A stretch of DNA of 64,000 nucleotides, taken from assembly GCF_056712565.1 (NCBI RefSeq), contig NZ_CM160072.1; one strand, given 5' to 3'. The notes under the pieces are model-generated. The model was not told the DNA's origin. It ran no database searches and worked only from the letters and a program-made list of their open reading frames with translations. A program made the translations under genes and the position numbers. Shown here one piece after another: positions 3,800 through 53,200 of this stretch. Each line of letters starts with the position of its first letter. The stretch's first letter is position 1.

Positions 3800-4678
3800 A
3801 TGAATAATCATTTCAAGTGTATTGGCATTGTGGGACACCCACGGCACCCCACTGCACTGACAACACATGAAATGCTCTACCGCTGGCTGTGCACAAAAGG
3901 TTACGAGGTCATCGTTGAGCAACAAATCGCTCACGAACTGCAACTGAAGAATGTGAAAACTGGCACGCTCGCGGAGATTGGGCAACAGGCTGATCTCGCG
4001 GTTGTCGTTGGCGGCGACGGTAATATGCTGGGCGCGGCGCGCACGCTCGCGCGCTATGATATTAAAGTTATTGGAATCAACCGTGGCAACCTGGGTTTCC
4101 TGACTGACCTTGATCCCGATAACGCCCAGCAACAATTAGCCGATGTGCTGGAAGGCCACTACATCAGCGAGAAACGTTTTTTGCTGGAAGCGCAAGTCTG
4201 TCAGCAAGATTGCCAGAAACGCATCAGCACGGCGATTAACGAAGTGGTACTTCACCCTGGCAAAGTGGCGCATATGATTGAGTTCGAAGTGTATATCGAC
4301 GAGATCTTTGCGTTTTCGCAGCGTTCCGATGGACTGATTATTTCGACGCCAACAGGCTCCACCGCATATTCCCTCTCTGCGGGCGGTCCTATTCTGACAC
4401 CCTCTCTGGATGCGATTACCCTGGTGCCCATGTTCCCGCATACGTTGTCAGCACGACCACTGGTCATAAACAGCAGCAGCACGATCCGTCTACGTTTTTC
4501 GCATCGCCGTAACGACCTGGAAATCAGTTGCGACAGCCAGATAGCACTGCCGATTCAGGAAGGTGAAGATGTCCTGATTCGTCGCTGTGATTACCATCTG
4601 AATCTGATTCATCCGAAAGATTACAGTTATTTCAATACATTAAGCACCAAGCTCGGCTGGTCAAAAAAATTATTCTAA
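3800..4678 (+). CDS. nadK: NAD kinase
   Basis: 292 aa, [17 protein letters not shown]...[11 protein letters not shown] motif. Confidence 0.95.
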
Positions 4679-4763: not shown

Positions 4764-6425
4764 ATGTTGGCACAACTGACCATCAGCAACTTTGCTATCG
4801 TTCGTGAGCTTGAGATTGATTTTCATAGCGGCATGACCGTAATAACTGGCGAGACCGGCGCGGGTAAATCTATTGCAATAGATGCCCTCGGCCTTTGTCT
4901 CGGTGGTCGCGCTGAAGCCGACATGGTGCGTACCGGCGCTGCTCGTGCCGACCTGTGCGCCCGTTTTTCTCTGAAAGATACGCCAGCGGCCCTGCGTTGG
5001 CTGGAAGAAAACCAGCTTGAAGACGGGCATGAATGTTTGCTTCGTCGCGTAATCAGCAGCGATGGTCGCTCCCGTGGTTTCATCAACGGTACAGCTGTTC
5101 CTCTGTCACAACTGCGCGAACTGGGTCAGTTGCTGATTCAGATCCATGGTCAGCACGCTCATCAGTTACTCACCAAACCCGAGCACCAAAAATTCCTGCT
5201 TGATGGCTATGCCAATGAAACCTCTCAGCTCCAGGAAATGACCGCACGTTATCAGTTGTGGCATCAAAGCTGCCGTGACCTCGCGCATCATCAGCAGTTA
5301 AGTCAGGAACGCGCCGCCCGTGCGGAGCTGCTGCAATACCAATTAAAAGAACTTAACGAATTTAATCCGCAGCCTGGAGAGTTTGAGCAAATCGACGAAG
5401 AGTACAAACGTCTGGCGAACAGCGGTCAATTGCTGACCACCAGCCAGAATGCATTGGCATTAATGGCTGACGGTGAAGACGCAAATCTGCAAAGTCAACT
5501 TTACACGGCTAAACAACTGGTGAGCGAATTGATTGGCATGGACAGCAAACTGTCCGGCGTACTTGATATGCTGGAAGAGGCTACCATCCAGATTGCTGAA
5601 GCCAGTGATGAACTACGCCACTACTGCGATCGTCTGGATCTCGATCCCAACCGACTGTTTGAACTTGAACAGCGCATCTCAAAACAGATTTCGCTGGCAC
5701 GTAAACATCACGTCAGCCCTGAGGCATTGCCACAGTATTACCAGTCGCTACTGGAAGAACAGCAGCAACTGGACGATCAGGCCGACTCACAAGAAACGCT
5801 CGCGCTGGCGGTAACGAAACATCATCAGCAGGCACTGGAAACGGCGCGCGCGTTACACCAGCAACGCCAGCATTATGCAAATGAGTTGGCACAGCTGATC
5901 ACCGATAGTATGCATGCACTCTCTATGCCACATGGGCAGTTTACGATCGATGTTAAATTTGACGAGCATCACCTGGGCGCTGACGGCGCTGATCGTATTG
6001 AGTTTCGGGTAACCACCAACCCAGGTCAGCCAATGCAGCCTATTGCCAAAGTCGCATCCGGTGGTGAGTTGTCCCGCATCGCATTGGCAATCCAGGTCAT
6101 TACCGCGCGTAAAATGGAAACCCCGGCACTGATTTTTGATGAAGTGGATGTAGGGATTAGCGGCCCAACAGCGGCAGTTGTCGGCAAACTGCTACGTCAA
6201 CTTGGCGAATCAACTCAGGTGATGTGTGTTACCCACCTGCCACAAGTCGCGGGATGTGGTCATCAACACTATTTTGTCAGCAAAGAAACCGATGGTGCGA
6301 TGACAGAAACGCATATGCAATCCCTGGATAAAAAAGCGCGGTTACAAGAGTTGGCGCGCCTGCTTGGTGGCAGTGAAGTCACACGTAACACACTGGCGAA
6401 TGCGAAAGAACTGCTTGCGGCGTAA
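4764..6425 (+). CDS. recN: DNA repair protein RecN
   Basis: 553 aa, [37 protein letters not shown] Walker A, coiled-coil middle, SMC-like C-terminus. Confidence 0.95.
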
Positions 6426-13620: not shown

Positions 13621-14044
13621 GCTAAAACTTTCGTTCAGGAAACTCTGAATGATACCTGAGAGTCTACTGAAGAGTTGTTTGTTCACTAGTTAGCACGTAG
13701 GAAATCATTCAATACTCGCACTATCGGAAGTTCACCAGCCAGTCGTAGCACGTCCTTGCAAACGACGTGCCTACGGTTTCAATCACCTCTCACCATCAAT
13801 TCTATCAATAATAATTAAACAGCGCCTAGACAAAATAAATAACAACAAGTCAACAACCTCGACAGGATGCCGATGGGATGATGAAGAGATAAGAAAGAAT
13901 AACCAGTAAAGCCCTAAAACGTCAGCGTTCAGACGCGTTTTTTACTTAATCGGTAACAAATACGTTGTATCATAGCAAAATAAAATGATTGTTCTAAATC
14001 AGATTAACTCCTCACTTTTGTACAATGTCGCTTACAGGTATACC

Positions 14045-15934
14045 ATGAAATCCGAGACGCTAACTGTCCAACAACTTTTTCAAGACCGCCGACAATACTG
14101 TGTTCCATTCTATCAACGTGCCTATGTATGGACTCAGCAAGACCAGTGGTCAGCTCTACTGGAGGATATCCTAGAGAAAGTACAATCCCGGCTCTCGGGT
14201 ACAAAACCAACTCCCCATTTCCTTGGTGCGGTTGTACTGGAACCTCAATCAAAAAAAGGATTATTAGGTGTAGATTCCATACATATTATTGATGGTCAGC
14301 AACGATTGACCACTCTTCAATATGTTCTGGCATCCATCCGATTAGCATTACGTGCTACGGATCTTTCCAGCTTAGAGGCTCTCATTTCGCCTTGCCTGAA
14401 AAACTCAAACGAAGACACAATGCGAAATAAAGAAGTAGAACGCTTCAAACTGTGGCCAACTTTTCGGGATCAAACTCATTTTATTCAAAGTTTTAATGTT
14501 GAAAATATTGACGATCTCCGGGACGTATTCTCTGATAGTTTCACGCAGCATGGTACGTTGCGTAAGCATTTTAATCACCCGCCATCACTAGAAGCATTAT
14601 GTTTTTTTACTGAAGCCTTTATAAAATGGATTAAAATAGAAAACCACTCACCACAAGAAAATGCTGTAGCTCTAATTGAGGCTGTCTTAACAGATCTGAA
14701 ACTGGTAAGCATATTTCTCGAAGCTGAAGATGATGCCCAAATAATTTTTGAAACATTAAATGGGCGAGGGGCGGAACTTCATGCTACGGATCTTATTCGC
14801 AACTATATCTTTATGTGCGCTGAGCATGAAAATATTAATGCTATTGAATTATATGAAAATGAGTGGAAGAGCTTTGAAGATAAATACTGGTCGGAAAAAC
14901 AACGCCGTGGACGTATTAATAAACCACGCATGGAGTGGCTAGTACATGCGACATTGCAATCAGAAAGGCAACGTGAAATTGATCTGTCTCGCCTTTACAA
15001 TGAGTATCGTGATTATGTAAGTAAGGACTTGTCTTCACAACGAGCAGATCTGCAAGTAAAGCGCCTCAAACAATATGCATCACAATATAAAGAATTGGTT
15101 GATGGTTTTGGCACAACCCCCATCTCACACTTTGGATATCGCATCGCAGACTATGATGTGACGACACTTTATCCGCTTGCTTTGTTCATTTCGATAGCTA
15201 ACATCGCTGATGATGAGAAAGCAGCCATGTATAATGATCTTGTCTCCTACGTAGTACGAAGAGCCGTATGTGGCCTGACGCCAAAGAATTACAACAATGT
15301 ATTTATGAATGTATTGCGGCACTTGGCTAAAACGGAAATTTCCAGTGTTGAGTTACGTAATATCCTCAATAACTTAAATGGCGAAGCCTCACGTTGGCCT
15401 GGTGACTCAGAATTTCTCAACGCTTGCATCAATGCTCCACTTTATCCTGGCAGGCTCGACGCACCGAAAATGCGCTCAATGTTAACGGAACTTGAAAGAG
15501 AACTTTGTCGCCAAGTAAAGACAGAAAAGCCTGATGTTCCAAATCTTTCTAATCTCGATATCGATCATCTTATGCCTCAAAGTTGGTATTCCTGTTGGCC
15601 TCTCGAAAATGGTCGTATGGTGACAAATTCAGATGCTACGGTATTGAACCAAATTGTTCTGTCTGGAACCGATCTTACCCCTGAACAGCTACTGGTAAGG
15701 AAACGGCAACAAGCGATATCTACTTTGGGAAATCTAACTTTGCTTAACCTTAGCGTAAACCGTTCTGTTCAGAATGCTGTATTTCTGAAAAAACGTGATG
15801 CTCTCATCGTCCACACCAATCTACGACTGAACATTCCACTTATAGTTAAGGATAAATGGGATGAGGATGAAATCCTGGAGCGGGGTAAAAAGTTGGGGGA
15901 AATTGCATTGAAAGTATGGCCAAAACACGATTAA
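14045..15934 (+). CDS. Type IV restriction endonuclease, GmrSD-like (N-terminal DUF262/ParB-like, C-terminal DUF1524/HNH-like)
   Basis: N-terminal DGQQRLTTL motif; C-terminal DIDHLMPQSW...N motif; start taken at MKSETLTVQQLF; AT-rich gene. Confidence 0.75.
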   Translation: MKSETLTVQQLFQDRRQYCVPFYQRAYVWTQQDQWSALLEDILEKVQSRLSGTKPTPHFLGAVVLEPQSKKGLLGVDSIHIIDGQQRLTTLQYVLASIRLALRATDLSSLEALISPCLKNSNEDTMRNKEVERFKLWPTFRDQTHFIQSFNVENIDDLRDVFSDSFTQHGTLRKHFNHPPSLEALCFFTEAFIKWIKIENHSPQENAVALIEAVLTDLKLVSIFLEAEDDAQIIFETLNGRGAELHATDLIRNYIFMCAEHENINAIELYENEWKSFEDKYWSEKQRRGRINKPRMEWLVHATLQSERQREIDLSRLYNEYRDYVSKDLSSQRADLQVKRLKQYASQYKELVDGFGTTPISHFGYRIADYDVTTLYPLALFISIANIADDEKAAMYNDLVSYVVRRAVCGLTPKNYNNVFMNVLRHLAKTEISSVELRNILNNLNGEASRWPGDSEFLNACINAPLYPGRLDAPKMRSMLTELERELCRQVKTEKPDVPNLSNLDIDHLMPQSWYSCWPLENGRMVTNSDATVLNQIVLSGTDLTPEQLLVRKRQQAISTLGNLTLLNLSVNRSVQNAVFLKKRDALIVHTNLRLNIPLIVKDKWDEDEILERGKKLGEIALKVWPKHD

Positions 15935-35417: not shown

Positions 35418-35768
35418 TCACTTCAGTCGTTCACGGGCCGTCTTCGCCTTATGACACGGCCAGCACAGGCTCTGCAGATTGCAGTCTGCATCAGTGCCGC
35501 CATGCGCTTTAGGGATGATGTGGTCAACGGTTTTCGCCTCACGCACCACACCGACATGCAGGCACAACTGACACAGGCCTTTGTCACGCTTCAGCACGCG
35601 CGCGCGGATAACATCCCACTTCGAACCGTAGCCGCGCTGGTGACGGGATTGTCCTGGCTTGTATTGTTTCCAGCCTTCGCTTTTGTGGCTTTCACAATAG
35701 CCTGACGGATCAGTGGTGGTTTGGCGGCAGCCGCGAACGCGGCAGGCTTTTGGGGTTCGTGGGGGCAT
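35418..35768 (-). CDS. HNH endonuclease (terminase-associated)
   Basis: 116 aa with CxxC ... DHIIPKAHGG ... N ... CWPCH motifs. Confidence 0.75.
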   Translation of the reverse strand: MPPRTPKACRVRGCRQTTTDPSGYCESHKSEGWKQYKPGQSRHQRGYGSKWDVIRARVLKRDKGLCQLCLHVGVVREAKTVDHIIPKAHGGTDADCNLQSLCWPCHKAKTARERLK

Positions 35769-35870
35769 TTAAAGTGGGATCTAACTCTAATAATTTAAAA
35801 AATTTAATTGGGTCTTGATATTAATCACATAGACTCAATGCTCTTTAGTTCTTACATAGGTGGTTGTATT

Positions 35871-36311
35871 ATGAGTATCCCCAGTTTAGATGTTCATAAA
35901 GTTGTTAAGTGCGCAGAGCATAAAAAGGCTTTAGATGCAATATCTCTCAAACTTAAGAATAACATTATTGACTCAAGCTCTGAATACGATTTTCTTGGCG
36001 ACACAATAATTTTCAATAAAGATAAAAAAAATAGGTTAACCCTCAAACTTTCAACATATGAACTAGAACTTATTTTCAAAGAAACACTGCTAGTCATTGA
36101 TGAAGCTCCTGTATTGAAGTTTGCTGCCATTGACCCAACCGATGAAAATAACAACGAGCTGATTGATTTATTTTTATCCAAAGGTGGATTTATTTATATT
36201 AGAGAATACAAATCCGAGCCACATTATGAGTATGGCGACACTTCTCTATTTTTACATATACTTGACGCTACTCTTAAAGAGCTTAAATCTGCAAACAAAA
36301 TATCCTATTAA
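35871..36311 (+). CDS. Hypothetical protein (AT-rich moron)
   Basis: ORF on the opposite strand to the flanking structural genes; start taken at MSIPSLDVH; strongly AT-rich. Confidence 0.45.
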   Translation: MSIPSLDVHKVVKCAEHKKALDAISLKLKNNIIDSSSEYDFLGDTIIFNKDKKNRLTLKLSTYELELIFKETLLVIDEAPVLKFAAIDPTDENNNELIDLFLSKGGFIYIREYKSEPHYEYGDTSLFLHILDATLKELKSANKISY

Positions 36312-36417
36312 ATAAATTTTTGCTAACATAGCCCCGCGCCATGACAAGATTTTCTGTTCTAGATGCAAGGGCTATGTGTGAATATCTATAAACAAAAACC
36401 CCATCCGGTGATTTTTG

Positions 36418-36669
36418 TCATTTTTTAGCCATCTCAATTGCGGCATCAAAAAGTCGTTCAAGAATAAAATCAGGGTACTGTAATTTTTCTTGCTCGATAT
36501 GAAGCTCATAAATTTTCCCTTCCCACTCCCATTTAAAATTAAATCCAGAAGCAGAAGGTGCGAAATGTGTTTTAGCTTTAGGGTTAGCGTAACCAGCAAC
36601 AGTCAACACATCAAACTTAAAATCTTGAGGTTTAATACGCATAATCATATCCTTTGCCAAGTTCATCAT
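36418..36669 (-). CDS. Small hypothetical protein (moron)
   Basis: 83-aa ORF, AT-rich. Confidence 0.4.
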   Translation of the reverse strand: MMNLAKDMIMRIKPQDFKFDVLTVAGYANPKAKTHFAPSASGFNFKWEWEGKIYELHIEQEKLQYPDFILERLFDAAIEMAKK

Positions 36670-36739
36670 TATTCTTCGCGATTATAAAACAATGAATAAA
36701 ATCATTAAAGCATAGACGTTAAATATCCTCAAAATGTGA

Positions 36740-37177
36740 TTAGTTGGGACATTGCGTCCTGATATACTCCTGCAAGTAATTGACCTGTGAGGTTATCTTG
36801 TCGATTCCACTTCGGAGACGGTAATAATGGAGTTCAGCATCTGCTGTAAGTCTAGGGCTTTCTCCATCGCCCATGCCGCTGGCTCCGGTCGTTGACTTTG
36901 TACAGGTGGCGGCGACTTGCAGGCGCTTATGCCCAGCAGAAACATCAGCACGAAGACTTTCGATAGTCGCATTAGCATCAGCAAGCTCCTTTGTATATCT
37001 GGCATCGAGTTCAGCTACATTACGTTGACGCTTCTGCATATCAGCGATGATGGATGTGGCTTTATCGCGCTGTACTTTGTAGACGATGGCGTCATCACGG
37101 TAATTATCAACAGCCCATGACAAGCAGACGATGATGCAGATAACCAGAGCGGATATAATCACCGTTACTCTGCTCAT
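36740..37177 (-). CDS. i-spanin Rz
   Basis: [23 protein letters not shown]... closely resembles lambda Rz. Confidence 0.8.
36793..36981 (-). CDS. o-spanin Rz1 (lipoprotein embedded in Rz in another frame)
   Basis: [20 protein letters not shown] lipobox followed by Pro-rich sequence. Confidence 0.65.
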
Positions 37178-37650
37178 ACCTGAATCTCTTTGACCGTTCC
37201 GCCGGCTTCTTTGAATTTTGCAATCAGGCTGTCAGCCTTATGCTCAAACTGACCATAACCAGCTCCCGGCAGTGAAGCCCAGATATTGCTGCAACGGTCG
37301 ATAGCCTGACGAATATCACCGCGATCAATCATCGGTAAAGCACCACGCTCTTTAATCTGCTGCAGTGCAACAGCATCCTGGCTTTTTGGAGAGAAGTCTT
37401 TCAGTCCAAGCTGTTTACGGTATGCATCCCACCAGCGGGAAAGAAGCTGGTAGCGCCCGGCAGCCGTTGATTTGAGTTTTGGGTTTAGCGTGACAAGTCT
37501 GCGAGGGTGATCGGAGTAATCAGTGAATATTTCTCCGCCCACAATGACGTCATAACCATGATTACGTGTCGGTTGTAGCCCATTATCCGTTCCTTCTGAC
37601 CAGGCCACCATATCGAGGAAAGCTTTACGCTGAGGATTAAGATTTTGCAT
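37174..37650 (-). CDS. Endolysin, lambda R-like lytic transglycosylase
   Basis: [18 protein letters not shown]...[10 protein letters not shown]...[18 protein letters not shown]... near-identical to lambda R as recalled. Confidence 0.9.
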
Positions 37651-38041
37651 TTTTCACCCCTGTCAGTCGTTCCCAGAAGTACGTCAGTGCAACCGAACCC
37701 ATCGCACCACTAATCCCCGCAGTTGCGAGAATCATGTAAATACTGAATCCACTTTCGATACTGATTAGGCCACCAATAACACCGGTGAATCCTGATACAA
37801 CTATCTGAGCGAGGGCATTTATCCAGCTCCACGTTGCTTTACTCTGCTTCACATCAATCAGGTAACGGACAAGCCCCCCCCAACCTGCGATGATCAGCAA
37901 AACAAGCCAGAACGCTCCGGCAAGATTCTCTTTTTCGTGCATATGAATAGCCGCAGTTTCGCCTCCGACAGAAAATCGGAGCGTGAAATGATATGTTGAT
38001 TTATTATTAATTCGAAAATTACATTCTAATTCATCAGGCAT
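37637..38041 (-). CDS. Holin (3 predicted TM segments); true start may be internal
   Basis: Three hydrophobic helices, immediately upstream of the endolysin. Confidence 0.6.
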   Translation of the reverse strand: MPDELECNFRINNKSTYHFTLRFSVGGETAAIHMHEKENLAGAFWLVLLIIAGWGGLVRYLIDVKQSKATWSWINALAQIVVSGFTGVIGGLISIESGFSIYMILATAGISGAMGSVALTYFWERLTGVKNAKS

Positions 38042-38093
38042 TGATGATTTTATAATAATAAAGGCCGTTCGTTACGGCCTTTATTATTGATAT

Positions 38094-38429
38094 TTATTTT
38101 ACATCCCAAGGTAGTTCCTCAAGAGAGAAGACTAATTCATTATCAATAATTTCGTATTCTGCATAACCTTCAACCTCTCCTGAGAAGTTATTGTCAACGC
38201 ATCCTTCATAATAGCTATATGGTGCTATAAAGTGAAACCCATATTCATCTATCTCTGTGATTTCAAAATTGTAGTAATCGTAAGAATATCGAATATCATC
38301 ATCAGAAATAGAACTAAGTACATAGTTATTAAATTTATCGGAATGCTTAACGATAAGTTCTGACAACGCGTCAAGATTCTCTGGAGAGATATTTCCTAAC
38401 GGTAATCTGTACTCAACGGCATTAATCAT
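38094..38429 (-). CDS. Highly acidic, Tyr-rich hypothetical protein (111 aa), first gene of the late transcript
   Basis: About 24 Asp/Glu versus 5 Lys/Arg; lies between the tR'-like terminator and the holin. Confidence 0.45.
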   Translation of the reverse strand: MINAVEYRLPLGNISPENLDALSELIVKHSDKFNNYVLSSISDDDIRYSYDYYNFEITEIDEYGFHFIAPYSYYEGCVDNNFSGEVEGYAEYEIIDNELVFSLEELPWDVK

Positions 38430-38481: not shown

Positions 38482-38508
38482 AAATAAAAACCCGCTCAAC
38501 AGCGGGTT
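38482..38508 (-). terminator. tR'-like rho-independent terminator downstream of the late promoter
   Basis: Minus strand reads aacccgctgttgagcgggtt followed by TTTTTATTT. Confidence 0.5.
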
Positions 38509-38554
38509 CGTGAAAATTATCAACGGCAGACATACAAAGCCCATCGTTGAGAAA

Positions 38555-38614: not shown

Positions 38615-39367
38615 TTATCTCGTCACCTTTCTCAATTGTGTTTCAGCATATGCTTCTTCCTGCCAGCACTTTGTTACTAGTTTATCAATTACGTCTGCAT
38701 ATCCTTTGTACCACTGATAATCAGTCAGGTCTGGAACCAGCTTCTGGACATGACGTCGTGCCAGTGTAGTCGGTAAACGGCTAAACCGGTTTCCATTGCA
38801 ACGCCCACAAGTCTTATAAACAGGCGTGCCATGAAGCCGGGTTCTTTTTTCATCCAGGACAATACCTTTACCCTTACACCCTCTGCACGCCGTGCTGACT
38901 TCTCCCTTGCCATGACAATGCTGACACAGTTCCTTCACCCACTCTTCTTTGATAACGGATTCCCCGCTTCTGGAATGTTTCACCACTTCGCGCAATACAT
39001 TATGAAATCCAGTACCAGTACAATGCTCACAGCGAGCCTTACTTGCCGCAGACCTGGAATAATCAGCAAAGGCAAAATTCACAAGGTAAGGGATGATCTG
39101 TAACCGGGTTTCTTCACTCAATTTGTTCAATGTCGGGTTATCCAGTGCCATCGCGTAATTGAGCAGGCCTTCAATCGCAAACTGAGGATCCTGAACACCA
39201 ACTTTTGCCAGGAATAAGGCAAACCCAAGCGGTGCTTTCGACTGCACCATCCCCTGCGCAGCCATTACATCCGTAATTGTTAAACCACCCGAGCCTGTCG
39301 CCGATGCGTCATCGCTCAATTTTGGAGATTTTGGGGAGTAATATTTCGGTAAGGCTTCAAGGTTCAT
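38615..39367 (-). CDS. Antitermination protein Q (multi-CxxC, phage 21/82-type)
   Basis: Start at MNLEALPKYY; C-terminal CEHCTGTG...CQHCHGKG...CRGCKGKG...CGRCNG zinc-binding motifs; position before the lysis genes. Confidence 0.65.
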   Translation of the reverse strand: MNLEALPKYYSPKSPKLSDDASATGSGGLTITDVMAAQGMVQSKAPLGFALFLAKVGVQDPQFAIEGLLNYAMALDNPTLNKLSEETRLQIIPYLVNFAFADYSRSAASKARCEHCTGTGFHNVLREVVKHSRSGESVIKEEWVKELCQHCHGKGEVSTACRGCKGKGIVLDEKRTRLHGTPVYKTCGRCNGNRFSRLPTTLARRHVQKLVPDLTDYQWYKGYADVIDKLVTKCWQEEAYAETQLRKVTR

Positions 39368-39380
39368 GCTCGTTCTCCAC

Positions 39381-40376
39381 TTACACCAGTACGCCAATTG
39401 CCAGCGCACGATCGATAAAACGAAATATCAGCTCCAGCTGGGAGCCATACATCTCTTCAAATGCCACGGTATCCGCATGCAGCTCGTCGTGATGCTTTCT
39501 GCACAAAGGCAACACAAAAAGGTCATGCGCTTTTGTACCCATTCCACCCTGTCCGTGGCCTATCAGGTGGTGGGGATCATCAGCGGGCTTTCCACAACAT
39601 GCACACGACTGTGTCTTAACCCAGCGCGTGTACTTTTCATTAACCCAGCGGCGACGTTTTGGGCGTAACATAAAAGACTCCGGCGACTCCGGATCCACTT
39701 TCAGCGCCAGCACCTTTTTCGCCTTATCCTGGATGATGCTGGTGGCAGGAACCGAAGGCACAAGGTCACTTTCCCGGGTGACAGACGGCACAACAGGCTT
39801 CGGTAATCTCAGTGCCTTACGGGCTGCACTTTCCGGTAAGGCATCCGCCAGATCATTACGAACCAGCCACCAGCACAGTTCCGGCATTGTCACAACGTGA
39901 CTGTCATCAAAACCGAGATCCCGACGCACAACAGACAACACCCAGCGGGCACAGTTATCCGTTGCCATTGATTCCAGCCGTTCCGTGAACTGATCGCGAA
40001 GCAGGTTATCGCAGTGCCAGCACAGACGGATTGCGCCCGGCGCGTGTCGCATTGTGGTCATGTTCTCGCTGTGCCATCCGGAATGAGGCCACTGACAGCC
40101 CTTTTCACGAAGTAACCAGCTTTCAAGACATTCCACACCCCCCGCACGACGAATAACTGCCTCATTGCGGAACACGGCCCGAATGGCAGGATCATCCGCC
40201 AGCGGTTGTGATGCCGCCGGAACGGCACCACTGGCAAAAGATGAATAACGTTCCGGCTCAGGCTCCAGCAGGACACGCCCCTGCATAAACAGGGGCATCA
40301 GCTCTGAACCGGGCCTGAACAATACGATCCCCATACGCGGGGCAATTTCAGGGGTCAGTAGTGCTCTCACGGTCAC
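39381..40376 (-). CDS. DUF968-family phage protein
   Basis: 331 aa; C-terminal Cys/His-rich region (CACCGKPADDPHHL...CRKHHDELH); Nin-region position. Confidence 0.55.
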   Translation of the reverse strand: MTVRALLTPEIAPRMGIVLFRPGSELMPLFMQGRVLLEPEPERYSSFASGAVPAASQPLADDPAIRAVFRNEAVIRRAGGVECLESWLLREKGCQWPHSGWHSENMTTMRHAPGAIRLCWHCDNLLRDQFTERLESMATDNCARWVLSVVRRDLGFDDSHVVTMPELCWWLVRNDLADALPESAARKALRLPKPVVPSVTRESDLVPSVPATSIIQDKAKKVLALKVDPESPESFMLRPKRRRWVNEKYTRWVKTQSCACCGKPADDPHHLIGHGQGGMGTKAHDLFVLPLCRKHHDELHADTVAFEEMYGSQLELIFRFIDRALAIGVLV

Positions 40377-49090: not shown

Positions 49091-49957
49091 ATGAATCAAA
49101 ATCCATTCTCATTCTATGACTTTCTTGGATATTTAATACCAGGTGGTTTTTTTATCCTATTAATGTATTTCTGTGGTTTGACATTCGATCTAGATATTGT
49201 TATTGACTTAAGTGAATTGCTCAGAGGTCAAAGTCAAATCTTTGGCATTTTGAACTACGCTTCAATAGTTATTATATCTTATATAGCTGGACATTTTATT
49301 TCTATCACGTCAGCATTTTTTATCGAAAAATACATGAATAAAGAATTAGGATATCCTTCCAAATATCTATTTAAAAAATTGATAGATACCTCAGAAAGCA
49401 TTTGTAGCCCATCATGCGATGAGAGAAGCGCTGATAAAAAAACAAAAATAAAGAATCGCATAATCAAATGCGTATTATGTCCAATAATACTATGGGATTT
49501 TATAACACAAAAACTATGTTATTCTCAATCTCTACCATTTCATTTAGCTAATACAACATGGTTAATGATCAAAGAAGGTTATGAGAAAAAGTTCATAACA
49601 AATCGCCAATTATTACAAGATAAAAACGGACTTGATGATGATCTCTTCAGATTGGCATATCATTATGTTTATGAGTTTTCAAAACAACATCAAACAAAAA
49701 TTCAAAACTATGTTGCATTATATGGTTTTTGCAGAAACATATGTTTAATCTTTATAATTTCATTTTGGGTATCAGTTCCAACCTTTATTTATCGATTATG
49801 TACTCATAGTGATTATCTTTATAGTTTACTTTCAATAATGCTTAGCTTTTTCTTCGTCTATGTTTTCTATGTTGGTTTTGTTAAATTTTATAGAAGATAT
49901 ACTTTAGAAGTATTAATGGCATTTGCTGTACTTCAAAGTAACGACACTATTCGTTAA
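49091..49957 (+). CDS. AT-rich multi-TM membrane protein of unknown function, next to xis; candidate exclusion/abortive-infection gene
   Basis: 288 aa from MNQNPFSFYD with GGAGAG RBS; hydrophobic helices at both ends; markedly AT-rich versus flanks. Confidence 0.5.
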   Translation: MNQNPFSFYDFLGYLIPGGFFILLMYFCGLTFDLDIVIDLSELLRGQSQIFGILNYASIVIISYIAGHFISITSAFFIEKYMNKELGYPSKYLFKKLIDTSESICSPSCDERSADKKTKIKNRIIKCVLCPIILWDFITQKLCYSQSLPFHLANTTWLMIKEGYEKKFITNRQLLQDKNGLDDDLFRLAYHYVYEFSKQHQTKIQNYVALYGFCRNICLIFIISFWVSVPTFIYRLCTHSDYLYSLLSIMLSFFFVYVFYVGFVKFYRRYTLEVLMAFAVLQSNDTIR

Positions 49958-50205: not shown

Positions 50206-51338
50206 CAATCAGGAAACACCACCAGGGAGAAACGATCAATATAACTTTCACCTACAAAGGAGTTAGATGTCGTGAGCCGCTTTCCAATCTGGAAGTAACA
50301 CCAAAGAACATTAAATACGCCGAGCGTACACTCGGCGAAATCCATAATAAGATCGAAAGGGGAACATTCATTTATGCAGAATATTTTCCCCGTTCTGCTC
50401 GTTTGAAAATTTTTGGTAATGCTGCTGCAAGCAAAACGGTAAAGATGTACCTGGACGAATATCTTGAAATCTGCGAAACAAGAAAACTTTCACCCTCTAC
50501 GATTGGTGGCTATAAAAAATGCCGTAGTGCGTTAGCCTCACTTCACATTTGCCCTGCAAGTGAATTAACACCAGCAACCCTGAAAGCGTGGATTCAAAGC
50601 CAGAAAACAACCTTAAAAACCATTCGCAACCAGTTATCTTTCCTACGGTCAGCACTTGATGAAGCCGTGACCGATGGGGTACTTCAAATTAACCCCGTAT
50701 CGTTAGTAACAGCTTCGCGCTACCAAAGTGATAAGTCAGAAGCAGAAAGCAGCTATGTGGTTGATCCGCTATCACCAGCAGAAGTTGATGCATTACTAGC
50801 AGCAGCCGGAAACAAACAATGGGAAAATCTGTTCCGGTTCGCCATACATACAGGCCTGCGTAGTTCTGAATTATGTGCCCTACGATGGCATGATATCGAC
50901 TTTGTTGGAAAAACAGCCCATGTTCAGAGCGCAAGTGTTGTCGGAGTTATCAAAGGAACAAAGACAAAAGCCGGTACCCGTAAAGTTGAACTGACTGAAG
51001 AAGCAATGTTGGCGTTGATAAACCAGAAGCCATTTACATTCATGAAGGATGCTACTGTCTTTGAAGATCCAAAGACCAATAAACCCTGGGCAAGTGCTGA
51101 TGCAATTAGGAAAAAAGCATGGGTGCCAACATTGCGAAAAGCAGGTATTCGTTACAGAAACCCATATCAAACCAGGCATACATTCGCCACCAGCCATATC
51201 AGCCGGGGAGCAAACCTGTTTTGGCTTGCGGCTCAAATGGGCCATAAAGGGCCTGAAATGTTATTCAGGCACTATGGACAATACTTGAAAGAGTATGATG
51301 GGAGGGCAAGTATCAAGGATAAAAAGGCTTTATTTTAA
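50166..51338 (+). CDS. Tyrosine-type phage integrase
   Basis: 390 aa; C-terminal R...HTFATSH...GHKGPEMLFRHYGQY gives the R-H-R-Y catalytic signature. Confidence 0.85.
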   Translation: MGQTKLLKLPRGVTIRKHHQGETINITFTYKGVRCREPLSNLEVTPKNIKYAERTLGEIHNKIERGTFIYAEYFPRSARLKIFGNAAASKTVKMYLDEYLEICETRKLSPSTIGGYKKCRSALASLHICPASELTPATLKAWIQSQKTTLKTIRNQLSFLRSALDEAVTDGVLQINPVSLVTASRYQSDKSEAESSYVVDPLSPAEVDALLAAAGNKQWENLFRFAIHTGLRSSELCALRWHDIDFVGKTAHVQSASVVGVIKGTKTKAGTRKVELTEEAMLALINQKPFTFMKDATVFEDPKTNKPWASADAIRKKAWVPTLRKAGIRYRNPYQTRHTFATSHISRGANLFWLAAQMGHKGPEMLFRHYGQYLKEYDGRASIKDKKALF

Positions 51339-51947
51339 GTCATTATGCCAATCGTCTACTGTTTGAAACCAAATTTTTAACCTTTGCATAAAGGTACGAT
51401 CCTTTTTGGGAGGGTGGTACCTTTGAAAAGAAGTATGTAACGCTTCGATAACTCCCATACAAGCATCAATTACTTCTTGTGCTTTAACCGGGCGATCGGC
51501 ATCTGAAAGCTTGTGAGCGACCTCACAATCCAGAGTTGCTTTCTCTAGTACAGATGAGAACACCTCGTCAGGTATATACAGTCCTCTGCTTTCCAAAATG
51601 CAAATCAGTTTGGAAACTTGTTGAGCTTTAGCCAAGATAGTTAACAAGTATGAAACAGAAGCCTTTGTTCTATCCTTTTGCAACCTTAACAATCGATGCT
51701 TTGATGCTCTAATTTTAGGTTGAGTTGTCTGACTGAGCCAATAGTTAGAAGAAATATCAGAAATTTCAATAACTAACTTTGAAATAGCATCAATAATTGA
51801 TTTCGATTCAGAACGTGTCGCCAGTTTTACAGAATTATTGTACGCAACTCGCCATCCAATGAAAACTAAGCAGACGCTAACTACTGTGATACACCACGAA
51901 TACTGTCCTATTTGTGCTACTAATGACATTGGTTCCGTACTGATCAA
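51330..51947 (-). CDS. Single-TM hypothetical protein; third gene of candidate defence operon
   Basis: 205 aa with N-terminal TM helix (YSWCITVVSVCLVFIGW); 10 bp downstream of the STAS-like gene. Confidence 0.5.
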   Translation of the reverse strand: MISTEPMSLVAQIGQYSWCITVVSVCLVFIGWRVAYNNSVKLATRSESKSIIDAISKLVIEISDISSNYWLSQTTQPKIRASKHRLLRLQKDRTKASVSYLLTILAKAQQVSKLICILESRGLYIPDEVFSSVLEKATLDCEVAHKLSDADRPVKAQEVIDACMGVIEALHTSFQRYHPPKKDRTFMQRLKIWFQTVDDWHNDLK

Positions 51948-51957
51948 CTATCGCCTC

Positions 51958-52284
51958 TTATACTCTTTCTGGTTGTGCTAAATCAATAAATTTATCAATC
52001 TGTTCTTTGTAGAACGGAACATCACTTTTTATAATCAAACGTGCTTTAACGTTGGCTTTAGGTATCCCTTCCTTACGGATGAGACCTCCAAACGCCTCTT
52101 CTAAGAAAGAGGAACCAACACCCAGTGCTATACCGCGAAAATCAACCACAATCTCCTGTTCAGTACCCTTCAGCGCAGGCACCAAAAACTCTCTACGAAA
52201 TCTTTCCGCACTGTGTGGGCTATCCGTTGTGTAACGTCCGAAAGGTGTTCTGGAGAACTCCTTCGCTATGACGATATTTCTCAT
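51958..52284 (-). CDS. STAS-like (DUF4325-like) protein; second gene of candidate defence operon
   Basis: 108 aa with VVDFRGIALGVGSSFLEEAFGGL, matching the DUF4325 core motif as I recall it. Confidence 0.5.
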   Translation of the reverse strand: MRNIVIAKEFSRTPFGRYTTDSPHSAERFRREFLVPALKGTEQEIVVDFRGIALGVGSSFLEEAFGGLIRKEGIPKANVKARLIIKSDVPFYKEQIDKFIDLAQPERV

Positions 52285-52288
52285 AAAA

Positions 52289-53200
52289 TCATCTCCTGGG
52301 AACCAGCGACCATTGTAGTAAAGTACCCGGTATGTACTCAGCTAGCTTCTCACATCGAGGACTACTGTCATTAGAATTATAGCTATAACGAGCCCTTCCT
52401 ATTAGTATCAGAAGTGTCTCATTATCCTCACAACCTGCCCCAATAGGTCTCTTGATATCTTCAGAGCCATTTCCCCGTCCGGAACCAACAAAGCGGGATT
52501 CCCCTACTAACATAGCTCTTTCCACAGAAGATACTTCGTTTTGAATGCTATGACCATCACCATTAGGCACGAAACTTCTATAAATCCCCAATCCAAGGTC
52601 ACAAACGATAAAAACGACTTTATTTTCATCACGATTGAACCAAGCGCACTGCCACCATCGTTTACCTTTGAGAAGCTGAATATCTGACTCGAACCCCTCA
52701 TCTTCATACGCATGATGAGAAACATTGAGCAAAGCTTCACTAATCGCTGTCAGCAGTAAGCCTAACTGTTCATTATTAAGCAGAGCACTTTTCTGCAGCA
52801 TGAGTACTGTTTCAACAATATGCTCGTAAGGTTCGACAGCTGACTGAAAGTATCGTTCCTCCCTCGTAAGTGCATTCAGTTTCTCTTCTGTGCCAGCAAG
52901 CAAAGCACGAGCAAGTCCAGTACCAACGATCCATCTATGCCCAGATGGGTTATCATCCTTTTTAGGCCATTTAAAACGTATAAAATTAGGGTCCCGGGTT
53001 AAAAATTGAGCTCTATTTACTATGGCAAAGAACAGTACCGATGCCGCAGCTGAGGCAAATTTTACCTTGGACAAATCAACTATAACTCGACCTTTATTTT
53101 TTACTCCAATCGATTCAATCGAGTTGATGAAGTTCAATGTCCCAGCCCTAGAATCATCTGAGTAAATGCAAAATTTGCTTGGGGGTACCAGTATGGTCAT
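52289..53200 (-). CDS. GHKL-type ATPase (histidine kinase/anti-sigma kinase-like fold); first gene of candidate defence operon
   Basis: N-box EALLNVSHHAY, G1 box CDLGLG, G2-like GSGRGNG; 303 aa; AT-rich. Confidence 0.6.
   Translation of the reverse strand: MTILVPPSKFCIYSDDSRAGTLNFINSIESIGVKNKGRVIVDLSKVKFASAAASVLFFAIVNRAQFLTRDPNFIRFKWPKKDDNPSGHRWIVGTGLARALLAGTEEKLNALTREERYFQSAVEPYEHIVETVLMLQKSALLNNEQLGLLLTAISEALLNVSHHAYEDEGFESDIQLLKGKRWWQCAWFNRDENKVVFIVCDLGLGIYRSFVPNGDGHSIQNEVSSVERAMLVGESRFVGSGRGNGSEDIKRPIGAGCEDNETLLILIGRARYSYNSNDSSPRCEKLAEYIPGTLLQWSLVPRR

Follow-up and report, generated by a model that had tools for sequence, protein, structure and literature searches.

Two orphan genes of independent distribution in an AT-rich cargo slot between the lysis and packaging genes of an Escherichia coli prophage

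Introduction

What are two small, AT-rich open reading frames (ORFs) doing between the lysis and the packaging genes of an E. coli prophage, and do they belong together? The question is raised by positions 35,871 to 36,669 of a 64,000-nucleotide stretch of NCBI RefSeq assembly GCF_056712565.1 (contig NZ_CM160072.1), the whole of which is called the window in the following. The two ORFs, here named gene A and gene B, lie within an apparently complete e14/SfV-like prophage that carries integrase, LexA-like repressor, Q, lysis cassette, packaging, head and tail genes. Matches to the window are present in the chromosome of E. coli ATCC 11775 and in about 100 further genomes, mostly of the extraintestinal pathogenic (ExPEC) or avian pathogenic (APEC) type. 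An earlier description (the sequence-only reading) had regarded the ORFs as a convergent pair of morons, a class of genes that often serve host interaction or exclusion and are expressed from the prophage.

The position itself suggests where to look for comparisons. In lambda, bor sits at the same place between lysis and packaging genes and, according to Barondess and Beckwith, is reportedly expressed in the lysogen. Both bor and its relative iss confer serum resistance, and their products are outer-membrane lipoproteins. In phi80, taiEcA (orf63) and atiEcA (orf64) form a 'noncontiguous operon' for defence by inhibition of tail assembly and for counter-defence. taiEcA is antisense, is expressed in the lysogen and is reduced on expression of Q, while atiEcA is a sense gene within the Q operon that codes for approximately 75–76 aa (PMC11364771).

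Results

Genes A and B are genuine, conserved genes

Both ORFs are genuine genes that are conserved in prophages of Enterobacterales. The genes and their translation signals are:

35871..36311, + strand: gene A, encoding a 146-aa acidic, soluble orphan protein (WP_000026993.1), antisense to the late operon
35858..35863, + strand: Shine–Dalgarno sequence AGGTGG of gene A, spaced 7 nt from the start codon, read from the sequence
36418..36642, − strand: gene B, encoding a 74-aa soluble orphan protein (WP_001220676.1), co-directional with the late operon
36650..36655, − strand: Shine–Dalgarno sequence AAAGGA of gene B, 7 nt upstream of the inner ATG and invariant in the alignment of gene B loci

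Gene A extends from an ATG at 35871 to a stop codon at 36309–36311; its 147 codons include the stop. An AGGAG-type motif is found at the equivalent place in the gene A homologues of loci L002 and L019. For gene B, the 83-aa ORF at 36418–36669 (− strand) is merely the longest reading. All full-length homologues are 72–74 aa long and, as in the RefSeq annotation, they use the inner ATG at 36642. The lengths of the homologues, this start codon and the invariant Shine–Dalgarno sequence together indicate that gene B is most likely located at 36418–36642 and codes for 74 aa. Thus, both ORFs of the sequence-only reading are present, but their lengths, given there as 147 and 83 aa, have to be revised.

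Small ORFs in AT-rich DNA raise the suspicion that they are non-functional remnants in decaying sequence, all the more so as gene A is frameshifted in many genomes and other, spurious ORFs overlap with these. When the 981-bp slot that holds both genes was shuffled 2000 times with its dinucleotide composition preserved, ORFs of 74 aa or more arose by chance in 20% of cases, but ORFs of 146 aa or more in only 0.15%. The length of gene A is therefore beyond chance, and gene B is validated by its conservation and by the ratio of non-synonymous to synonymous substitution rates (dN/dS) rather than by its length. Codon-level comparison with the homologues revealed purifying selection on both reading frames, with dN/dS values of 0.17–0.32 for gene A (dS not saturated) and of 0.03–0.07 for gene B. 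Translation signals are conserved as well, and full-length homologues occur in seven genera. For the two families the remnant explanation is hence refuted and we give it hardly any weight, although it is true for single alleles such as gene A of E. coli UTI89.

Both families are very small. When 1.84 billion representative proteins were searched exhaustively with HMMER, six clusters were obtained for gene A, and word-indexed searches with gene B returned about 15 clusters. Gene A occurs in Escherichia, Salmonella, Citrobacter and Atlantibacter, with protein identities down to 30%, and gene B in Escherichia, Enterobacter, Lelliottia, Citrobacter, Salmonella and Pantoea. Members of both families are annotated as 'hypothetical protein' only. 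The sequence-only reading had tied its proposal to conservation across related prophages, and this conservation, under purifying selection and across the seven genera, was found for both genes.

Genes A and B are distributed independently

Genes A and B are independent single-gene accessory modules and do not form a two-gene system. They are convergent, as had been described, with gene A on the + strand, gene B on the − strand and 106 nt between the stop codons. Gene A occurs without gene B in six of its eight contexts (L002, L015, L019, L024, L025 and L030); the two contexts that contain both genes are closely related E. coli alleles. Conversely, gene B is found without gene A in L003, L005, L006–8 and L033–L040. 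Even within E. coli either gene can be lost while the other persists. In the L010/P0013 lineage a nonsense codon cuts the gene B product to 50 aa and gene A is intact, and in UTI89 gene A is truncated and gene B is intact. The word 'pair' used in the sequence-only reading therefore has to be abandoned.

This distribution also decides on a toxin–antitoxin or addiction module that would stabilize the prophage. Small size, adjacency and foreign base composition within a prophage would suit such a module. However, they are convergent and not co-transcribed as a bicistron, the families are distributed independently, and no toxin–antitoxin family in Pfam, NCBIfam or PADLOC was matched. Alleles with a dead gene A and an intact gene B (UTI89 and relatives) and with a truncated gene B and an intact gene A (L010/P0013) show that neither gene is the antidote of the other. 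Natural single knock-outs in both directions and the convergent layout exclude a toxin–antitoxin pair, and this explanation is effectively refuted.

The genes occupy a variable cargo slot

In the leftward order of the late genes, Q is followed by a 111-aa AT-rich ORF, holin, lysozyme, Rz/Rz1, gene B, gene A (in antisense), HNH, TerS and TerL. The packaging and structural genes comprise the HNH gene with a P27-family terminase, an HK97-type head and a contractile tail. The slot and its neighbours are:

35769..36749, strand not applicable: variable cargo slot of 981 bp with a GC content of about 0.33, from the HNH start codon to the 3′ end of Rz, delimited by blastn against sister prophages
35418..35768, − strand: HNH endonuclease gene, left flank and first gene of the packaging module (Pfam HNH, E = 5e-14; RefSeq)
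36740..37177, − strand: Rz i-spanin gene, right flank and end of the lysis cassette (Pfam Phage_lysis, E = 8e-37)
36793–37005, − strand: Rz1, embedded in Rz, recognized by a lipobox in the embedded ORF
38615–39409: Q, upstream of the 111-aa ORF in the late gene order

The location between the terminase/HNH module and the lysis cassette agrees with the earlier description, with HNH–TerS–TerL on one side and Rz/Rz1–lysozyme–holin on the other. The same is true for the low GC content, which is 0.32–0.37 over 35850–36750 compared with 0.50–0.59 on either side (gene A 0.32, gene B 0.36). Homologues of both genes are AT-rich as well, with GC contents of 0.30–0.43 within loci of 0.44–0.56. The claim that both ORFs interrupt the leftward late genes proved half right, since only gene A opposes them and gene B is co-directional.

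In blastn comparisons with sister prophages that have the same flanks (L011–L014), homology stops exactly at 35768, the HNH start codon, and restarts at 36750, which lies 10 nt within the 3′ end of Rz. Between these boundaries the sister E. coli prophages carry iss (antisense, like gene A), a DUF6236 gene, a different, unrelated 83-aa ORF, or essentially nothing. The block of the window is present at an identity of at least 99% in 104 of 5426 complete E. coli genomes. Neither flanking repeats nor signs of a transposon were recognized around the slot, where a repeat search gave short chance matches only. Presumably the cargo is exchanged through recombination in the conserved flanks. An Rfam scan of the region from 34 to 40 kb likewise returned matches at chance level only.

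As is typical of morons, the block is present or absent between homologous phages with sharp boundaries, and its base composition is deviant. It is reasonable, and partly supported, to regard both genes, which represent two orphan families in a known recombination hot spot, as accessory (moron-type) cargo in a variable slot. To this extent the moron assignment of the sequence-only reading stands; the antisense layout known from bor and iss, however, is seen in gene A only.

Gene A is always antisense to the packaging genes

Gene A or its homologues were found in eight contexts (the window, L010, L002, L024, L025–29, L030, L015–18/31/32 and L019). In all of them the gene is antisense to HNH–TerS–TerL and adjoins these genes, sometimes with one 85-aa ORF in between. 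This linkage is kept despite TerL identities to the window of 24–62% and despite differing lysis cassettes. The intervening ORF (orf85, 85–95 aa, sense) lies between the gene A homologue and HNH in L002, L024, L025 and L029, which are Salmonella/Citrobacter-type prophages. Its copies are 76–83% identical, have no Pfam match and are absent from the window.

Just 3′ of each gene A homologue there is a differing hairpin or terminator, canonical in L015 and L019, and good −10 boxes precede the homologues in L015 and L030. In the window the following candidate was found:

36326..36377, either strand: long, imperfectly paired hairpin in the intergenic region, a candidate terminator for gene A (z = −2.2 on the + strand and −3.5 on the − strand)

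The protein has an isoelectric point (pI) of about 5.1–5.4, with 5.4 for WP_000026993.1. A signal peptide, a transmembrane segment or a lipobox was not detected (maximal Kyte–Doolittle average over 19 residues, 1.12). The invariant columns of the family contain no Cys/His or other recognizable catalytic motif, which favours a binding role over an enzymatic one.

Several alleles of gene A have decayed. The site affected in UTI89 was located by alignment with the window:

36024..36031, + strand: A8 homopolymer in gene A, site of the 1-nt deletion in UTI89

UTI89 has A7 instead of A8, which truncates the product to 55 aa. Among the carrier genomes listed, approximately 25 of 60 gave a match of 771 nt, 1 nt short, with gene A unannotated. 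They include IHE3034, APEC O1, NU14, PMV-1 and many ST95-type genomes; the position of the deletion within A8 was itself checked in UTI89 only. The tract may be a hot spot of slippage, or the deletion may simply reflect one clonal event. The same A8 site differs by 3 nt in a related allele, P0002. Furthermore, an IS1 insertion at about 35955 cuts gene A after 85 nt in L022 (E. coli ZJ3920) and in APEC E18006. The cut gene is joined there to the yfdR region, and the prophage has lost its early region and lysis cassette together with the remainder of the slot.

Gene B is strongly constrained and may have its own promoter

In all of its approximately 10 contexts, gene B shares the strand of Rz and lies 3′ of the spanins and 5′ of TerS. 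The gene that follows it varies. It may be gene A, a DUF2158 gene with an 80-aa ORF, a 206-aa ORF, a Tai-like fragment (L040), other sense ORFs or TerS directly. Two possible regulatory elements frame the gene in the window:

36681..36686, − strand: TATAAT box, candidate −10 element of its own, 38 nt upstream of the gene B ATG (alignment of gene B loci)
36391..36419, − strand: weak hairpin with U-run overlapping the gene B stop codon, degenerate terminator (−10.8 kcal/mol)

A TATAAT, GATAAT or TAGAAT hexamer lies 25–41 nt upstream of the ATG in eight of nine gene B loci, even amid diverged sequence; the −35 elements are weak. A strong intrinsic terminator (GCCGCC–loop–GGCGG–TTTTTT) after the gene B stop codon is conserved in L003, L005, L006 and L008. 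The folding energy of this element is −17 kcal/mol in L003, compared with the weak hairpin of the window.

The gene B product has a near-neutral pI, and no signal peptide, transmembrane segment or lipobox was detected in it (maximal Kyte–Doolittle average over 19 residues, 0.44). The AlphaFold model, with a mean confidence (pLDDT) of 68, has an alpha-beta3-alpha topology. A resemblance of this model to the alpha-beta3-alpha fold of double-stranded RNA-binding domains was considered and rejected (TM-score 0.35). Fold searches of BFVD gave uncharacterized phage proteins only, with E-values of 0.006 or worse, and no remote homology was detected between the gene B product and two other small sense ORFs of the slot (L011 orf83, L002 orf76).

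The constant place of gene B raises the possibility that it is no moron but a late accessory of lysis or packaging, such as a protein that adjusts lysis timing or terminase action, which would leave gene A as the sole cargo. Gene B always lies between spanins and TerS, 58–120 nt after the spanin gene in most contexts. It is under very strong purifying selection, with 54–78% conservation compared with 44–52% for the adjacent Rz. However, it is missing from the close prophages L011–L014, which have the same lysis and packaging genes, and from all isolated phages searched. Its contexts span three unrelated terminase types as well as two spanin and two holin types, which leaves it without a fixed partner. 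Moreover, the −10-like box and the terminator, strong in homologues and degenerate in the window, would suit an insulated moron, and the gene is nonsense-truncated in one lineage. On balance we consider a fixed role in lysis or packaging unlikely, while granting it some weight.

Comparison with known systems of the same slot

The closest functional analogue of genes A and B appears to be taiEcA/atiEcA of phi80. The slot between Rz and the packaging genes is the same, and in both phages a larger antisense gene adjoins a small sense late gene. One explanation would accordingly be that genes A and B are a cognate pair for defence and counter-defence in the manner of TaiEcA and AtiEcA, with A, made in the lysogen, blocking incoming phages and B, made from the Q-dependent late transcript, neutralizing A to permit reproduction of the resident phage. 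They are adjacent, similarly low in GC and carried together as one 99%-identical block in 101 E. coli genomes, and weak co-occurrence is not fatal to this idea, as only 5 of 57 Tai homologues have a recognizable Ati (PMC11364771). On the other hand, hhalign gave probabilities of 0.1% for A against TaiEcA and of 0.5% for B against AtiEcA, that is, no detectable homology. The gene A product has 146 aa compared with 204 aa for TaiEcA, and the genes are convergent here and not co-inherited, whereas those of phi80 are divergent or overlapping. Gene A lacks gene B in most of its contexts and gene B lacks gene A in every non-E. coli context. In addition, gene B is far more conserved than gene A and stands beside unrelated neighbours, which is unexpected for a cognate binder. 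The lack of similarity, the convergent layout and the lack of co-inheritance indicate that genes A and B resemble the Tai/Ati architecture without being members of these families. The natural knock-outs and the layout weaken the cognate pair further, and it seems a little less credible to us than a late accessory role of gene B.

In L040, a prophage from IMG/VR, the slot holds both a Tai-like ORF and a gene B homologue. The former, a 95-aa antisense ORF (4850–5137, − strand), is 36% identical to TaiEcA (E = 5e-16) and immediately precedes TerS; the latter (4001–4219, + strand) is distant, with an identity of 33%. The 206-aa ORF of L008 has no homology to TaiEcA.

Gene A shares its position and antisense orientation with lambda bor and E. 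coli iss, and iss itself occupies the slot in a sister prophage whose flanks are the same. By this likeness gene A might be a factor of lysogenic conversion or virulence, with the animal host or the physiology of the bacterium, and not phages, as its target. The concentration of the E. coli allele in ExPEC/APEC-type strains (UTI89, IHE3034, APEC O1, O2:K1 and O18 isolates) would fit, but this enrichment may reflect clonal inheritance of one prophage. The gene is frameshifted in the prototype pathogens UTI89, IHE3034 and APEC O1, and homologues occur in many non-pathogenic Enterobacterales prophages. The A protein is soluble, acidic and cytoplasmic, and without signal peptide, lipobox or transmembrane segment it would not be surface-exposed like Bor and Iss; Iss of L013, by contrast, has its lipobox at residue 14. 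No Pfam, NCBIfam or PHROG match to Bor/Iss was obtained for A or B, and gene B has no counterpart in these systems. Such a virulence role for gene A is improbable, in our estimation more so than a cognate pair.

The third comparison is with the classical morons of Juhala and Hendrix, such as HK97 gp15 (Cumby et al. 2012), a membrane protein that is encoded among the tail genes and reportedly prevents the entry of DNA. Genes A and B are likewise small extra genes of deviant composition that are present or absent among similar phages, and gene B has a promoter-like box and, in homologues, a strong terminator, as would suit the canonical build of a moron. They differ from gp15 in that both products are soluble, are encoded elsewhere in the genome and are unrelated in sequence.

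Other AT-rich or accessory features of the window

Further features of the window were noted. The 111-aa orphan ORF between Q and holin (38094–38429, − strand; GC content about 0.34) has phrog_13663, a family of unknown function, as its sole match (E = 9e-54). It is bracketed by terminator-like hairpins at 38053–38089 and 38488–38509. The slot between Q and holin is the position of stx in Shiga toxin (Stx) phages. The adjacent holin ORF (37637–38041, − strand) has 134 aa when read from its first ATG, compared with 101 aa (306 nt) in the RefSeq annotation, and the Pfam LydA-holin match begins at residue 47 of the longer reading. Probably the upstream extension is untranslated or an alternative start is used.

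Beyond the integrase, an AT-rich cluster of three genes at about 51330–53200 (EAS44_RS06740–06750 of ATCC 11775) codes for a hypothetical protein, a STAS-like domain protein and another hypothetical protein. This cluster at the attachment-site end looks like further accessory or defence-type cargo. A GC minimum of 0.29 lies at 49201–49800. Just outside the tail-fibre/invertase end of the prophage, a DUF262-domain protein is encoded at about 14044–15933 in a stretch with a GC content of 0.38–0.42. The DUF262 family includes GmrSD-type restriction enzymes.

Discussion

We propose, with a probability of roughly one half, that the AT-rich block is junction cargo composed of two independent modules, namely a gene A that is made in the lysogen and acts in exclusion, and a gene B that encodes a small, late binder. 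Gene A has the layout of bor, iss and taiEcA, is preceded by a ribosome-binding site of its own and followed by a hairpin, and is oriented against the Q-dependent late operon. This arrangement suggests that it is expressed in the lysogen and might be turned down in lytic growth by terminator-resistant late transcription running in antisense toward HNH and terminase. From the gene order, late transcription must cross both hairpins and gene A in antisense. That this would have a regulatory effect on gene A is suggested by the analogy with phi80, where expression of Q lowers TaiEcA. The product would be a soluble, acidic protein-binder, most likely one that excludes competing phages or aborts their growth. 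Gene B would be expressed at least late, via Q read-through, and perhaps constitutively too. Its small, highly constrained alpha/beta product probably binds or inhibits a protein of the host or of a phage.

A number of results weigh against this proposal and limit our confidence in it. The sequence upstream of gene A in the window revealed no convincing sigma-70 promoter, and the hairpin behind the gene lacks a clean U-tract. Gene A is frameshifted in about 40% of the carrier genomes listed, which implies that it is not strongly selected in these lysogens and is dispensable to them. Neither the DNA of the block nor the A and B families, at the DNA or protein level, were detected among 50,697 isolated phage genomes. 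Searches of Pfam, PHROGs, NCBIfam and PADLOC with the proteins of the window and all aligned homologues gave nothing usable. In PADLOC-DB v2 a sub-threshold match of 31 residues to PDC-M24A (E = 0.011–0.016) appeared in two of eight gene A homologues and none appeared for gene B. Profile searches of PDB sequences with both proteins yielded noise (E of 0.05 or worse), Foldseek searches of the PDB with the gene B model yielded generic matches only (best E = 0.098), and the AlphaFold2 model of the gene A product, calculated from an alignment of three sequences, was unusable (pLDDT 39). A literature search by the accessions of the two proteins returned nothing. Homology and structure searches have thus provided no family or fold that points to a function, in line with the sequence-only reading, which had called both ORFs of unknown function.

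A bolder version of the proposal would make gene A a new single-protein gene of anti-phage immunity that is retained in constant antisense orientation where the HNH–terminase modules of Enterobacterales prophages begin and is silenced in cis by Q-driven late transcription, and gene B a widespread late protein of counter-defence or self-immunity through which resident phages evade defences encoded in this slot. We regard this version as speculative, on a par with the less favoured alternatives discussed above. If it were true, the Tai/Ati hot spot would have gained a new pair of families, one for defence and one against it. If no function emerges, the block would be one more case of ordinary prophage cargo.

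The lysis-to-packaging junction of lambdoid phages is a proven source of genes for lysogenic conversion and immunity, as bor, iss and tai/ati demonstrate. At this junction two 'hypothetical proteins' of the databases turn out to be genuine, selected and positionally fixed families, with gene A always antisense and gene B always sense. They are concrete and cheap candidates for screens of phage defence or counter-defence, for which natural knock-out alleles, UTI89 without gene A and another lineage without gene B, are at hand for comparison.

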